DNA of 64,000 nt. Origin: Escherichia phage JP4. This document shows positions 26,611 to 30,472 of the stretch, in pieces. Within the stretch, counting starts at the first letter, position 1; the number at the start of each line of letters is the position of its first letter. A model generated the notes under the pieces. The model was not told the DNA's origin and did not search any database. It saw nothing but the letters and a program-made list of their open reading frames with translations. Position numbers and translations under genes: made by a program. Location: the sequence record PQ330092. One strand, given 5' to 3'.

Positions 26611-27252
26611 ATGACTAAGCAAGACATATTCAAAACTTTAATTGACATTTTGCGTCCATCAAAAACTCGTTGTGCGATGGAGTTTGATATTCCTTATGCT
26701 GAACGCGTAATCTTTCCACAAGTTAAAGCTGCTGGACTTACTTTGCTTGGAATGGGGATGTACTCTGTAGTAGTTGAACATAAAAACTATCCTGGGCGTG
26801 CATTTAAAGTAACCACTTCACGCTGGGATGGTTTTCGTGCTTATGCAAAGTACTGCATTGAAAACGCAGGAACCAAGTTTCTTCCAGTGATCTACAGTGC
26901 AAACGAACAAGGAAACTTTGGATGGTATGAGATGGACAAGTACTATCCTATAATTAAACAAAAAAATAATTATGATGACTTTGTTAGTACTAAAATTGGA
27001 GATTTATATTCTTATGCACATGCTGGTCAGTACGCTACTTCAGTGAATGATATGCGTGGTAATTCTGAAGAGATTGCTATTGCGACGGTCGCTGCTAACA
27101 TCATGAAAGAGTTTCACGGGCGTTTTGTACCAGACATTCATTCCAGTAATGTCATGATGGATAAAGATGGCAATGTATTCATTACTGATCCTCTTTCGTG
27201 TGATGTACGTAGAGAAATACCAGTTACTGAAGAAGATCCAGTTTTTTATTGA
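26611..27252 (+). CDS. protein kinase-like fold protein (putative)
   Basis: Start at ATG 26611 (track ATG 26578 lies in the promoter); LGMGMYSVVV (Gly loop-like), AFKV (VAIK-like Lys), DIHSSNVMMD (catalytic loop-like), ITDP (DFG-like). Confidence 0.5.
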   Translation: MTKQDIFKTLIDILRPSKTRCAMEFDIPYAERVIFPQVKAAGLTLLGMGMYSVVVEHKNYPGRAFKVTTSRWDGFRAYAKYCIENAGTKFLPVIYSANEQGNFGWYEMDKYYPIIKQKNNYDDFVSTKIGDLYSYAHAGQYATSVNDMRGNSEEIAIATVAANIMKEFHGRFVPDIHSSNVMMDKDGNVFITDPLSCDVRREIPVTEEDPVFY

Positions 27253-27313
27253 CAGAACTGATGTTCTGGTGTATTCTTAATAAACCATAAAAATTGCGGT
27301 AAAGGATAAAATC

Positions 27314-27595
27314 ATGCGTTCATTTGAAAACTTAATAGGTAAGCATCTTTTATCTGAAATTGATGCAGACGTTAAAGAATTATCCAAATCAAAAAGTTAC
27401 ATTCATTTGGATGAACTGTTTATTAAGTACGGTGAGATTGGTTTTAAGTCATTATTTGTTTTTACTATGAAAGTACATAGTTTAAAGTACTTCGATTTGA
27501 GTTCTAAAGATGGTGAACCGAATCTATATTACATGTATTACCTTAAGAACAAAGATGAAGCTAATACATTACTCTCTGAATATATATTGGGGTAA
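27314..27595 (+). CDS. hypothetical protein
   Basis: 93-aa ORF with aagga SD. Confidence 0.5.
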   Translation: MRSFENLIGKHLLSEIDADVKELSKSKSYIHLDELFIKYGEIGFKSLFVFTMKVHSLKYFDLSSKDGEPNLYYMYYLKNKDEANTLLSEYILG

Positions 27596-27597
27596 AA

Positions 27598-27936
27598 ATG
27601 GAACAATATTTTGAATTAATAAACAAAGTATCATTTTATGTAGTATCTTTGGTTTGGGTGTATTATATGTTTTGCTACATTATTGCATTCTTCCGATACA
27701 CTACTTTATATGAACGTATCTACTATGATGCCCCAATTTCATTCTTGATGTTTTGTGCATGTACGTGGGGAATATTAGAAGTACTGATATGTGGGTATAG
27801 TACTGATGAATTAAATCTGGTATCGGTCTTGACTGGGTTTTCATTTGTTGTTATGATAGCTGCCGTTCCAGTATGGTTGTTCTTTGGACTAGTTCATCGC
27901 ATTGATATATGGCGTTCTAATATCCCTGAAAAGTAA
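27598..27936 (+). CDS. small multi-pass membrane protein, paralog family B
   Basis: 3-4 hydrophobic helices; C-terminal IWRSNIPEK. Confidence 0.55.
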   Translation: MEQYFELINKVSFYVVSLVWVYYMFCYIIAFFRYTTLYERIYYDAPISFLMFCACTWGILEVLICGYSTDELNLVSVLTGFSFVVMIAAVPVWLFFGLVHRIDIWRSNIPEK

Positions 27937-27939
27937 GGA

Positions 27940-28287
27940 TTGGTAATGATTTATTACACTAACATGTTTGCCTATGCTGTTGCTTGCATTTACATTGTTT
28001 ACTTCTTATTCGGTGGAGTACTGTGCTTCTTTAAGTACAAAACGTTGTTCAACCGAATGTACCCAAATCATCCAATTGTGGTTGTACTTTTGATTCTTTC
28101 AGTTTCTCAAATAATCGTTGAAACTACAATGGGTATCAGTAGTGTACATTATAGTTTTGGTACTATAGTAATTATTACTATGCTTATTGCATACATTTTA
28201 GTACTTGGATATGGTATCTTTGGTAATATTGGTATGAAAATGTATCATCGAATTAAAACATTACGTGATAATCTACCGGAGCGTTGA
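27940..28287 (+). CDS. small multi-pass membrane protein, paralog family B
   Basis: Hydrophobic helices; C-terminal LRDNLPER. Confidence 0.55.
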   Translation: MVMIYYTNMFAYAVACIYIVYFLFGGVLCFFKYKTLFNRMYPNHPIVVVLLILSVSQIIVETTMGISSVHYSFGTIVIITMLIAYILVLGYGIFGNIGMKMYHRIKTLRDNLPER

Positions 28288-28288
28288 T

Positions 28289-28633
28289 ATGTATAATTTG
28301 AACCTAATCTCATATATTATAACAACACTGTTTACATTCTATGCCTTTGTTGGTATAATCCTACTGTACTTTAAATTTTATAAAGTGTTTAACCGTTTCT
28401 ATCCTTCAATGGAGAATGAGTTTTTCTTTGTGTTGTACGTAGGTTACACATTAATGGCTACATGTTTCACTGTAGCCGATGGTGTCATCGGCATTAAAAC
28501 TGATTCCCCAAATGGTAGTACGCTGGTTGCATTTATTCTTACTGGATTCCTTGCAACTTATATAGCCTTCATTACAACATGGTCAGTGGTTGAATTTCTC
28601 TTGCGACTACGAAAGAATATGCCGAATCGATAG
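28289..28633 (+). CDS. small multi-pass membrane protein, paralog family B
   Basis: ATG 28289 after ggag SD (track start 28265 overlaps); C-terminal LRKNMPNR. Confidence 0.55.
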   Translation: MYNLNLISYIITTLFTFYAFVGIILLYFKFYKVFNRFYPSMENEFFFVLYVGYTLMATCFTVADGVIGIKTDSPNGSTLVAFILTGFLATYIAFITTWSVVEFLLRLRKNMPNR

Positions 28634-28642
28634 GAGACATAT

Positions 28643-28897
28643 ATGTTTGCGTTGCGTAATAAAAACACTAAAGAATTATTATGTATTGATACCGTATGGG
28701 ATTGTGCGGGGTCAACTACAGTTCTTGAAGAAGGAACTGGATATTGCGTGTTTGTTGTACATGATAGGAATGAACTCGAATTATTACTTGCTGAGTTCAA
28801 TGCTGGTGGTAATCCTAACAGTACTGAATACCCTGAGATTATCAATCCAGCACCACCAGGCTCTTATGAAATTCTACAACTGTGGGAGTTGAAGTAA
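28643..28897 (+). CDS. hypothetical protein
   Basis: 84-aa ORF with aggag SD; preferred over overlapping ORF 28590-28892. Confidence 0.5.
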   Translation: MFALRNKNTKELLCIDTVWDCAGSTTVLEEGTGYCVFVVHDRNELELLLAEFNAGGNPNSTEYPEIINPAPPGSYEILQLWELK

Positions 28898-29277
28898 TGC
28901 GTCAAATGCACAAAGTAACCGAGCTAAACAAGCGTCTGGTTAAACAATCAATGTTCGAGGATAAAGAGTCTTATTATAACTTTAAACGTGCTGTAGAGGC
29001 TGCTATCCACATTCAGAAGCTTAAAGAACGTGGTTGTATTATTCTGGAAAATGGGTCGGAAGTTGTAACGGATGACTTTAGTGTAGCGTTTGATGTTTCA
29101 CCTGACGGGACGCTATCAATGCCCCGCTTAGGAACTGGAAACATGACTGTTTGGGTTGGCTTCACTATGGGGAATGTACCTGGTACTGTGTACGTAGATG
29201 ATGCGGAATTGAAAGACAGTTTCAAAAACTTATCTTATCTTGAACCACAATACGCACATGAAATGAATTTATTTTGA
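28897..29277 (+). CDS. hypothetical protein
   Basis: ATG 28897 overlapping upstream TAA; track start 28882 overlaps upstream gene. Confidence 0.5.
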   Translation: MRQMHKVTELNKRLVKQSMFEDKESYYNFKRAVEAAIHIQKLKERGCIILENGSEVVTDDFSVAFDVSPDGTLSMPRLGTGNMTVWVGFTMGNVPGTVYVDDAELKDSFKNLSYLEPQYAHEMNLF

Positions 29278-29353
29278 GTTGACAAACACATTCCGTACTA
29301 TATAATGCTTATCAAGGGGATGAACTTCTCATCCCTACAATCGAGGAACTACC

Positions 29354-29908
29354 ATGATTACTTTTAAGAAAACTGCTAACCACATCCATGAAATCTACAT
29401 TAACGGTCACAAAGCTGGCCTTCTTCGTTTACTCGCCCATCACCCTGATGCTACCGTATCTGATAATGAACCTAAAGATTGGCGTGTCTTTTTCTTTGGA
29501 AAGTACAGTGATTTTCAAGTATCAAACCTGAAGAACATTCGTTCAGTATGCACGTTAACTGAAATTAAAGAAAAGTTAGCACAAGCATTGAAAACTAATC
29601 CAGATGGTGTTCTTCCACCTGATAACTTTGTAGAGAAAGGTTATGCTTTAGCTCATTTCAAAGATGGTACTATTCAATCTATCAGTACTGAATATGAATA
29701 TCATTGGACTGAGTACTTCACTTATGGTTCGAGTAATACATTGATGGATTCACGTAGTAAATTGGAAGAAGTACTGACTCGTATGAATGAACGCGAGCGT
29801 CAGTTATATGACAAACGAGAAATGTGGAGTTCAACTTACATTGACCGTATTGACTATGTTATTATGACTCCAATCTTTGACACTGCTTACTATGATTCTT
29901 TGAAATAA
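29354..29908 (+). CDS. hypothetical protein
   Basis: 184-aa ORF with gagga SD. Confidence 0.55.
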   Translation: MITFKKTANHIHEIYINGHKAGLLRLLAHHPDATVSDNEPKDWRVFFFGKYSDFQVSNLKNIRSVCTLTEIKEKLAQALKTNPDGVLPPDNFVEKGYALAHFKDGTIQSISTEYEYHWTEYFTYGSSNTLMDSRSKLEEVLTRMNERERQLYDKREMWSSTYIDRIDYVIMTPIFDTAYYDSLK

Positions 29909-29919
29909 GGATAACTTAT

Positions 29920-30096
29920 ATGAAACTACGTACTCGTAATCGACTGATGGATGCACTGTACCATGAACAGCTTTCACTGAATGAAGTGAAGCGTCAGTTA
30001 ATGTACACATATCAGTTCCCCGCTCGCATTGCAAAACAACGTGCTAAAGAATTGCTGAAAGAAGCAATCGAGTACTGGGAATCTGATTCGTACTAA
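29920..30096 (+). CDS. hypothetical 58-aa basic protein (absent from ORF track)
   Basis: ATG after aagga SD; MKLRTRNRLMDALYHEQLSLNEVKRQL..; fills the gap between flanking genes. Confidence 0.45.
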   Translation: MKLRTRNRLMDALYHEQLSLNEVKRQLMYTYQFPARIAKQRAKELLKEAIEYWESDSY

Positions 30097-30100
30097 CATT

Positions 30101-30472
30101 ATGAATATAGATTTGAAAGGTGCAACCCGAACTGTTATCCTCATTGGGGAATATGCTATCAAGATTCCAACCTTTAAAAGTTGGAAGCTATTCTTAACAG
30201 GGATGATAGCTAACCTCAATGAACGTTCGTGGATGCAGTACTCCAATCGTAGTGATAGTAGTATCTGCCCTACGTTGTGGTCATCATGTACTGGACTAGT
30301 AACTGTACAGAAACGTTGTAAGCCAGTACAACATAGGGGTTTATTTTGGGTGGAGTTGTGTGCTTTAGCATTGAATTCAGAGTTAAGTACTGACTTCTTC
30401 TATTCAGATGCGAAGCCAGAAAACTTTGGGTATCTGTGTGGTAAGTTAGTTAAACTTGATTATGGAGATTAA
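30101..30472 (+). CDS. mini protein kinase-like protein (putative)
   Basis: GEYAIKIP (VAIK-like), DAKPENFGY (HRDLKPEN-like), VKLDYGD (DFG-like) in only 123 aa. Confidence 0.45.
   Translation: MNIDLKGATRTVILIGEYAIKIPTFKSWKLFLTGMIANLNERSWMQYSNRSDSSICPTLWSSCTGLVTVQKRCKPVQHRGLFWVELCALALNSELSTDFFYSDAKPENFGYLCGKLVKLDYGD

Follow-up and report, generated by a model that had tools for sequence, protein, structure and literature searches.

The T7 kinase (T7K, gp0.7) disarms many bacterial defence systems via promiscuous phosphorylation, and its homologues in the Autographiviridae are hyper-promiscuous anti-defence kinases (PMC13645617). Homologues in jumbophages, including Escherichia phage G17 and Munch, have lost the shut-off (SO) domain and kept a DP(V) motif, the Val of which is less conserved in these phages (PMC13645617, Nature 2026). 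Within the superfamily of protein kinase-like (PKL) proteins, ten key residues have been defined, six of them catalytic (G52, K72, E91, D166, N171 and D184; Kannan et al., PMC1821047), and the αF helix with D220 is regarded as near-universal. Here we describe two kinase-like proteins encoded in a 64,000-nucleotide stretch of Escherichia phage JP4 (sequence record PQ330092; this whole stretch is called the window below), namely protein A (213 aa) and protein B (123 aa). Both open reading frames (ORFs) were found intact on the + strand, where a sequence-only reading of the window had placed them (Table 1). The ~5.8-kb stretch around both genes was 98.5% identical to Escherichia phage UB and 98.6% identical to 121Q, members of Asteriusvirus, which are Rak2-like jumbo myoviruses of ~350 kb; Escherichia phage G17 was 98.6% identical in the region of A and B. 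All local genes were read from the + strand, in agreement with a low G+C content and a positive GC skew.

The proposal that both proteins have a kinase fold was supported, and the catalytic residues were in place in each. The kinase core was present in A and B; however, the two classical lobes of a bilobal fold were not, as both chains end soon after the DFG-equivalent, and both lack the activation segment and helices αF-αI. The two proteins share this reduction to a kinase core without a C-lobe despite having no detectable relation. When the alignments of the two families were compared with hhalign, the probability was 0.8%, bearing out the earlier description of the pair as unrelated-looking; a common origin was rejected at the sequence level. 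Compared with phage UB, A had 8 synonymous and 2 non-synonymous codon differences and B had 10 and 1, respectively; both genes are under purifying selection. Overall, the fold of A and B is well supported.

Motif order and spacing were kinase-like in both proteins. The A-x-K lysine (A-F-K66 in A, A-I-K21 in B) and the D..(K/H)..N catalytic-loop motif (D175-I-H-S-S-N180 and D103-A-K-P-E-N108) were found in each as had been proposed. A Gly-rich loop had also been attributed to both; it was present in A (G47-M-G-M-Y-S) but absent from B, which has a single invariant Gly and then an invariant T-R. The D(Y/P)G-like motif was present in B (D120-Y-G122), whereas A carries D193-P-L, a T7K-type 'DPV' variant and not D-x-G. 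An ordered regular expression ([AV]xK, 60-130 aa, Dx[KH]xxN, 8-22 aa, D[FYP][GLV]) matched 3 of the 200 window ORFs of at least 60 aa, compared with 0.03 expected from residue shuffles. The third match, ORF 6584-7168 (194 aa, phrog_16175, function unassigned; V-L-K ... D-I-K-V-N-N ... D-F-G), was rejected as a kinase on a D...E-x-K pattern and a weak NOV_C match (E 0.037), and from its sequence it is more likely a PD-(D/E)xK-type nuclease. Because one of the three matches looks like a nuclease, the motif string alone is unreliable and confirmation needs independent evidence, so the original caution that the kinase call rested on short motifs was justified. No further kinase paralogues were found when hidden Markov models of the A and B families were run against the window.

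In order along the chain, protein B has β1-β3, αC and β4-β5, then an αE-like helix and the catalytic loop, and finally β7-β8 and D-Y-G, with the stop codon one residue after D120-Y-G122. An AlphaFold2 model built from 115 sequences had a kinase-like fold (predicted local distance difference test score, pLDDT, 93.8; predicted template modelling score, pTM, 0.83). Strands were predicted at residues 2-4 (β1), 10-15 (β2), 18-23 (β3), 58-61 (β4), 68-71 (β5), 109-112 (β7) and 115-118 (β8), and helices at 28-43 (αC), 79-92 (αE-like) and 97-101 (a short helix). The model thus contains the elements that define the PKL fold, namely a five-stranded N-lobe β-sheet with αC, and after it αE, a catalytic loop, strands β7-β8 and an Mg-binding loop. 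All six catalytic PKL key residues had counterparts in B (G7, K21, E41, D103, N108 and D120). The K21-E41 spacing was 20 aa, compared with 19 in PKA (K72-E91), and the D103-D120 spacing was 17 aa, compared with 18 (D166-D184; PKA numbering from PMC1821047). The expression GxGxx[GSA] had no match in B, only G7 being present, and the residues before the catalytic Asp were F-Y-S-D, the H/Y-R being variable and not conserved in the family. No activation segment, αF with D220 or αG-αI was found in B after the DFG-equivalent, showing that B is truncated and not a typical PKL member. The αE-like helix was strongly hydrophobic (G-L-F-W-V-E-L-C-A-L-A-L). In the BFVD, Foldseek matched B to small phage proteins, among them one of Ralstonia phage RP12 labelled 'Protein kinase domain-containing protein' as well as 194-aa proteins from RaK2 and CBB. 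Among solved structures, the model matched the small kinase-fold chains NleH1 and OspG (160-169 residues) and Ark1 (173). We are highly confident in the predicted fold and catalytic site of B.

The only family that B matched was phrog_4301, which has no assigned function, with an E of 5.3e-43 (residues 2-122 aligned to positions 40-167 of a 225-position profile). Relatives in a 90%-clustered collection numbered 15 and then 124, none with a precomputed Pfam domain, and an exhaustive profile search gave 1,204 representatives (50% identity) at E<=1e-3, of which 638 were at E<=1e-10. Among the 150 matches listed, almost every one was 110-135 aa long. In an alignment of 258 members, E41 was conserved in 258, K21 in 256, R10, G34 and D120 in 255 each, N38 in 254, G7 in 252, G110 in 248, T9 in 226 (with Ser in 20 more), G122 in 223, K105 in 222 and Y121 in 211. 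The tail past the D-x-G column was 0-1 residue in 200 of the 258. Column 103 was D in 188 and E in 65 of these sequences; in column 108, 196 had N and 55 had S. The variant loop E-N-K-x-D-S-F-G replaced D-x-K-P-E-N-F-G in roughly a quarter of the family, with K21, E41 and D120 kept; these E103/S108 variants may form a subfamily in which the catalytic base is shifted or the chemistry altered.

Single-sequence and narrower-profile searches of the PDB with B returned nothing, and only a deeper family profile reached kinases. With the latter, 26 of the 28 matches at E<=10 were protein kinases (TTK at E 0.01, CK1α, MAP3K8), all weak, and the family string lsDaKPeNFGy...klDyG was aligned with HSDLKPANF...IDFG. 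The commonest weak Pfam matches among 115 members were ABC1 (8) and PIP49_C (5), both kinase-like. Along with the match of the gp063 paralogue described below, these results point to a kinase relationship independently of the structural model. Longer members of the family had no Pfam matches to fused domains. One 1073-aa sequence, P0165, contained ~68-aa tandem repeats that matched positions 50-101 of the B profile sixteen times (E 2.9e-26), and we cannot tell whether it is an amplified mini-kinase gene fragment or an assembly or translation artefact. Annotation of B was uneven. The full ORF was intact in UB and 121Q, and only an internal 80-aa ORF is annotated in UB (L001:5734-5973) and no coding sequence in phAPEC6 (gap 4297-4961 of L016); in the BFVD, one Asteriusvirus record splits B into 38 aa (A0A2Z5HGC2) and 84 aa (A0A2Z5HG44). 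No description of a ~120-aa phage kinase family was found in the open-access literature searched. By its sequences the B family, which is large, without a Pfam domain and held in a PHROG labelled as function unassigned, appears to be new as a description and to represent an extreme PKL variant.

The statement that two kinase-like genes lie in one region was correct for the window and understated for the genus, as a third one lies outside the window. This gene, gp063 of phage Sharanji (WNN14351.1; L015:12027-12611), encodes a truncated 194-aa paralogue of B. It matched phrog_4301, the PHROG of B, at E 1e-41, and Pfam Pkinase over positions 26-152 of 263 below threshold (E 0.0024). The gp063 chain ends ~25 aa past L-D-Y-G, and proteins of this type extend ~30 aa beyond B at the N-terminus and ~25 aa at the C-terminus. 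The same PHROG was also matched by P0251, P0277 and a Salmonella prophage homologue. No gp063-type copy was found in the window with tblastn. In the Sharanji report gp063 was called 'another protein kinase' of unassigned function, and the B orthologue WNN14422.1 was not among the kinases named (PMC11895373). A, the gp063 type and B, the smallest, thus bring the truncated kinase-like proteins of Asteriusviruses to three, which makes Asteriusvirus a good system for separating redundancy from specialisation.

Protein A consists of a three-helix N-terminal extension (residues 3-40), an N-lobe, αC, αE, the catalytic loop, D-P-L and a 20-aa tail. The start at 26611 was preferred over an alternative upstream ATG at 26578 because a GAGGA Shine-Dalgarno sequence lies 8 nt 5' of it and because homologues of A are mostly 213 aa and start with MTK or MKK. 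A matched phrog_15752 ('protein kinase; inhibitor of host transcription...') at E 2.5e-97, phrog_2828 (serine-threonine kinase, the PHROG holding T7 gp0.7) at E 8.8e-17 and also phrog_18305; T7 gp0.7 matched the same three. In BLASTP, residues 41-210 of A were 26% identical to residues 68-230 of T7 gp0.7 (E 5e-9), with all four motifs in register (LGMGMYS/LGNGHFS, FKV/IKV, D-I-H-S-S-N/D-M-H-S-G-N and I-T-D-P-L/I-T-D-P-V). Among 26 homologues, G47, G49 and Y51 of the loop, K66, D175, H177, N180 and I-T-D-P were invariant, and all 26 carried the precomputed Pfam family PF27024. A itself had no significant match in NCBIfam, PADLOC or a copy of Pfam without PF27024, and this accession was not mentioned in the literature searched. 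The chain ends 20 residues past D193 with no further structured element and no SO/DNA-binding domain. This absence agrees with the published loss and places A in the jumbophage sub-branch of the T7K family; it does not exclude A from the kinase-domain family. Family membership is already published, the Sharanji orthologue WNN14432.1 having been named as a T7 kinase homologue (PMC11895373). A is thus a T7K (gp0.7)-family member reduced to the kinase domain, and by analogy with T7K it is presumably a Ser/Thr kinase.

Homologues of B were found in a variety of genomic contexts. They lay between Rz and the small terminase gene Nu1 in Salmonella lambdoid prophages and between head-closure and neck genes in Acinetobacter prophages; others were upstream of terminase genes, beside Dam together with an Asn-synthase-like gene, in large phage contigs surrounded by small hypothetical genes, or beside dUTPase, ThyX and thymidylate kinase. 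When the ORFs of 41 loci were clustered, no neighbour of B other than DenV was conserved beyond close relatives. These variable, moron-like contexts without a conserved neighbour indicate that B acts alone. A split kinase, with the C-lobe supplied by ORF 30474-30743 or another neighbour, was rejected because no neighbour was conserved across the 41 loci. The downstream ORF 30474-30743 was also rejected as the missing half, being a weak paralogue of 28643-28897, as were the 73-aa genes 3' of two B homologues, which are mutually unrelated.

Our best reading is that A and B are constitutively active Ser/Thr-type kinases serving host takeover or anti-defence, with activity and substrates inferred. 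In B, the β1-β3 sheet would cover the ATP, with Lys21, positioned by αC Glu41, holding it in place. Asp103 would act as the catalytic base, Lys105 would contact the γ-phosphate as in Ser/Thr kinases, and Asn108 and Asp120 would bind Mg2+. Because the chain has no activation segment, P+1 loop or αF-αI, activation-loop regulation and a dedicated peptide-binding lobe would both be missing. From these missing parts B is expected to be constitutively 'on' with low intrinsic specificity, as is T7K, and would either be promiscuous or gain specificity via self-association or a partner; the hydrophobic helix 79-92 is probably covered by self-association, a substrate or a partner. The role of A and B in takeover or counter-defence is suggested by analogy with T7K. 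The T7K-type domain also ends soon after the DFG-equivalent, yet its Autographiviridae members are hyperactive, which sets a precedent for phage kinases that are active though they have no classical C-lobe. B is probably an active phosphotransferase. We somewhat favour the view that A and B are independently acquired, C-lobe-less protein-kinase-like enzymes that phosphorylate proteins of the host or of competing elements during takeover. That B itself acts on proteins is plausible, with the balance slightly against it. The broadest version, in which B and its family of ~1,200 clusters are self-sufficient, active ~120-residue protein kinases forming a second promiscuous takeover or anti-defence class independent of T7K, is put forward more tentatively still.

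Several observations weigh against this reading. B had no match to a curated kinase model in Pfam, NCBIfam or PADLOC, all its sequence-level kinase matches being sub-threshold. Also missing from B is αF with its conserved Asp (D220), by which most PKLs stabilise their catalytic loop. In about a quarter of the family, D103/N108 are replaced by E/S. Early expression was inferred from sigma70-like promoters alone, which were no commoner than in shuffled sequence. Constructs of the minimal effector kinase SteC that lack αF/αG are well folded yet inactive, and OspG requires an E2~ubiquitin partner (bioRxiv 10.1101/2025.03.01.640964), so the stand-alone activity of a 123-aa kinase is not guaranteed.

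This behaviour of SteC and OspG bears directly on the possibility that B is not self-sufficient, being instead an ATP-binding pseudokinase, a regulatory subunit or a half-kinase, active only once its missing C-lobe surface is provided by another B molecule or by a protein of the host or phage. NleH and OspG lack subdomains VIII-XI (PMC12756638), and αF-αI are absent from B; the E103/S108 subfamily also fits such dependence, and the hydrophobic helix 79-92 would be solvent-exposed in a monomer. However, the six catalytic key residues were almost invariant over 258 diverse sequences, which is unexpected for a mere binder, no conserved phage-encoded neighbour offered itself as a partner, and T7K-family proteins such as A also stop soon after the DFG-equivalent while members in the Autographiviridae are highly active. 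We regard partner dependence as improbable. An active phosphotransferase on a non-protein substrate is somewhat less unlikely. B would then phosphorylate small molecules, nucleotides or immune signals, or nucleic acids, in the manner of aminoglycoside/choline-type kinases or the archaeal RNA kinase ArkI, and the missing C-lobe would reflect a substrate that needs no peptide-binding platform. The absence of an activation segment and P+1 loop and the basic character of B (pI 8.6) are in keeping with this, as are the homologues among nucleotide-metabolism genes (dUTPase, ThyX, thymidylate kinase) or adjoining the DNA-repair glycosylase DenV (in the window and in a second phage clade). By contrast, most genomic contexts of B homologues were unrelated to metabolism, and the best sequence-level matches were protein kinases (TTK and CK1, with Pkinase for the gp063 paralogue). 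The loop of B, D-x-K-P-E-N, has the Lys of Ser/Thr kinases and not the H-x-D-x-x-x-x-N of aminoglycoside and choline kinases. A catalytic-loop Lys in D-x-K is characteristic of Ser/Thr protein kinases (PROSITE PS00108-type motif).

It could also be argued that B has no kinase fold at all and that its motifs arose by chance, that it is a fragment or pseudogene of a longer kinase, or that the AlphaFold model is over-confident. No curated family matched B, the probable nuclease ORF 6584-7168 satisfied the same regular expression, UB annotates only the 80-aa internal ORF and phAPEC6 nothing, and B covers only positions 40-167 of the 225-position phrog_4301 profile. This explanation was largely refuted and is very improbable, since 1,204 representatives were found, nearly all of those among the 150 matches listed being ~120 aa and ending at D-x-G; UB and 121Q keep the whole reading frame, the codon differences being 10 synonymous against 1 non-synonymous, and the 115-sequence alignment gave a model with a pLDDT of 93.8.

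Table 1. Positions of proteins A and B, their motifs and associated features (window coordinates unless a locus is named).
Feature	Position	Strand	Description or evidence
Protein A	26611..27252	+	213 aa, T7K (gp0.7)-family kinase domain, without shut-off domain
A Gly-rich loop G47-M-G-M-Y-S52	26749..26766	+	Translation; aligns with LGNGHFS of T7 gp0.7
A β3 A-F-K66-V, predicted ATP-anchoring lysine	26803..26811 (A-F-K66)	+	Aligns with I-K-V of T7 gp0.7
A catalytic loop D175-I-H-S-S-N180	27133..27150	+	Aligns with D-M-H-S-G-N of T7 gp0.7
A D193-P-L, DFG replacement of T7K 'DPV' type	27187..27195	+	Aligns with I-T-D-P-V of T7 gp0.7
Protein B	30101..30472	+	123 aa, mini protein-kinase-like protein, phrog_4301
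B predicted phosphate-binding turn K-G7-A-T9-R10, in place of GxGxxG	30119..30130	+	Family conservation
B β3 A-I-K21, VAIK-type lysine	30155..30163	+	K21 in 256/258; β-strand residues 18-23 in model
B αC glutamate E41	30221..30223	+	E41 in 258/258; helix residues 28-43
B catalytic loop D103-A-K105-P-E-N108	30407..30424	+	Aligns with H-S-D-L-K-P-A-N of TTK
B D120-Y-G122, DFG equivalent	30458..30466	+	Aligns with I-D-F-G of TTK
DenV, GC-rich clade	L040:4501-4989, L042:495-980, L043:2888-3436, L044:4264-4830, L046:4500-4994		Beside B homologues
Terminator-like hairpin and sigma70-like promoter 5' of A	26550..26582	+	GGGTTGAC-TTCG-GTCAGCC and T-run; TTGACT, 18 nt, TATGAT
Copies of the intergenic element, ~24 nt each	20697, 24123, 25465, 26550, 31163, 33108, 34522	+	TTCG-loop hairpin

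A gap of 4 nt separates B from a 58-aa gene in front of it, and B has no obvious Shine-Dalgarno sequence; its stop codon lies within reach of the following gene, whose ribosome-binding site it overlaps. In 121Q and Sharanji an extra 252-nt gene (gp214 in 121Q) lies just upstream of B; none was present in the window. The gene for the pyrimidine-dimer DNA glycosylase DenV (denV, 31224-31739) lies two genes downstream of B. DenV was also directly downstream of the B homologue in five loci of one GC-rich phage clade, overlapping the ORF end in one of them (L043). Between these two lineages DenV was 36% identical and B ~29%. Because the adjacency was seen in only two lineages, it is a lead and not a finding; B and DenV could be a shared accessory cassette, or neighbours by chance. 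Between the B operon and denV lies an HNH endonuclease ORF (30756-31169; phrog_2255, E 1.8e-32). UB shares the insertion, with just 195 nt of it annotated as HNH endonuclease, and 121Q lacks it, a distribution consistent with a mobile homing endonuclease.

An intergenic element, GGGTTGAC-TTCG-GTCAGCC-TTTTT, occurred in seven copies in the window, with 0 expected by chance, one of them 5' of A. The 5' arm of the element doubles as a TTGAC(T) -35, with a TATGAT/TATAAT-like -10 located 18 nt further, and the element may be a combined terminator-promoter unit that punctuates the gene array. Three tandem paralogues (27598-27936, 27940-28287 and 28265-28633; 112-122 aa, 25-27% identical) lie between A and B, each with a conserved R-x-N-x-P-E/N-K/R end, and their long hydrophobic stretches suggest small membrane proteins. 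The products of 28643-28897, 3' of this trio, and 30474-30743, 3' of B, were weak paralogues (27% identity, E 0.011), both starting with M-[FY]-A-L-x-N-K. In an Acinetobacter-type prophage contig, the structural operon holding a B homologue also contained an Acb2/Tad1-hairpin family gene (L007:2318-2650). This family is an anti-CBASS/anti-Thoeris sponge family, and accessory counter-defence genes may be tucked into that prophage module.

A complete kinase active site in a widespread 120-residue protein calls into question whether αF and the C-lobe are indispensable. If B is active, αF and the whole substrate-binding lobe would be dispensable for phosphotransfer, and B would offer a very small engineering scaffold. 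If the proposed role is true, a second, far more widespread family of unregulated mini-kinases, carried by both phages and prophages, would bear on phage counter-defence and on prophage-mediated manipulation of the host.

Compared with T7K, A was alike in the Gly-loop, the Lys, D-x-H-x-x-N and I-T-D-P and falls in the jumbophage branch. T7K is targeted to nucleic-acid-binding proteins by its SO/DNA-binding domain, whereas A has no such domain and carries D-P-L instead of D-P-V; A adds nothing new except confirmation that T7K proteins of the jumbophage branch consist of a bare kinase domain. B had no sequence relation to T7K (hhalign of the B family with T7 gp0.7, probability 0.08%), and its domain likewise ends soon after the DFG-equivalent. 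Canonical Ser/Thr kinases (Pkinase PF00069; TTK/Mps1, PknB) have the GxGxxG, the H/Y-R-D arginine, the activation segment/APE and αF (D220)-αI that B lacks, and B covers approximately the first 150 of the 263 Pkinase positions, below every curated threshold. RIO, Bud32 and archaeal ArkI/Ark1 gave no sequence-level match to B, and the matched chains, of at least 173 residues, extend well past its 123; the catalytic loop of RIO, Bud32 and ArkI is also without the Ser/Thr-kinase Lys. The effector kinases OspG and NleH1/2 had no detected sequence similarity to B and solved chains of 160-169 residues; OspG is activated by host E2~ubiquitin, and OspG and NleH are bacterial effectors in eukaryotic cells, whereas B is a phage protein. 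The actual family of B is phrog_4301, whose gp063-type members are longer at both ends. The minimal kinases found in the literature keep more than B does (NleH and OspG 160-169 residues, Ark1 173), and an active B would be smaller than all of these matched small solved kinase-fold chains (160-173 residues).

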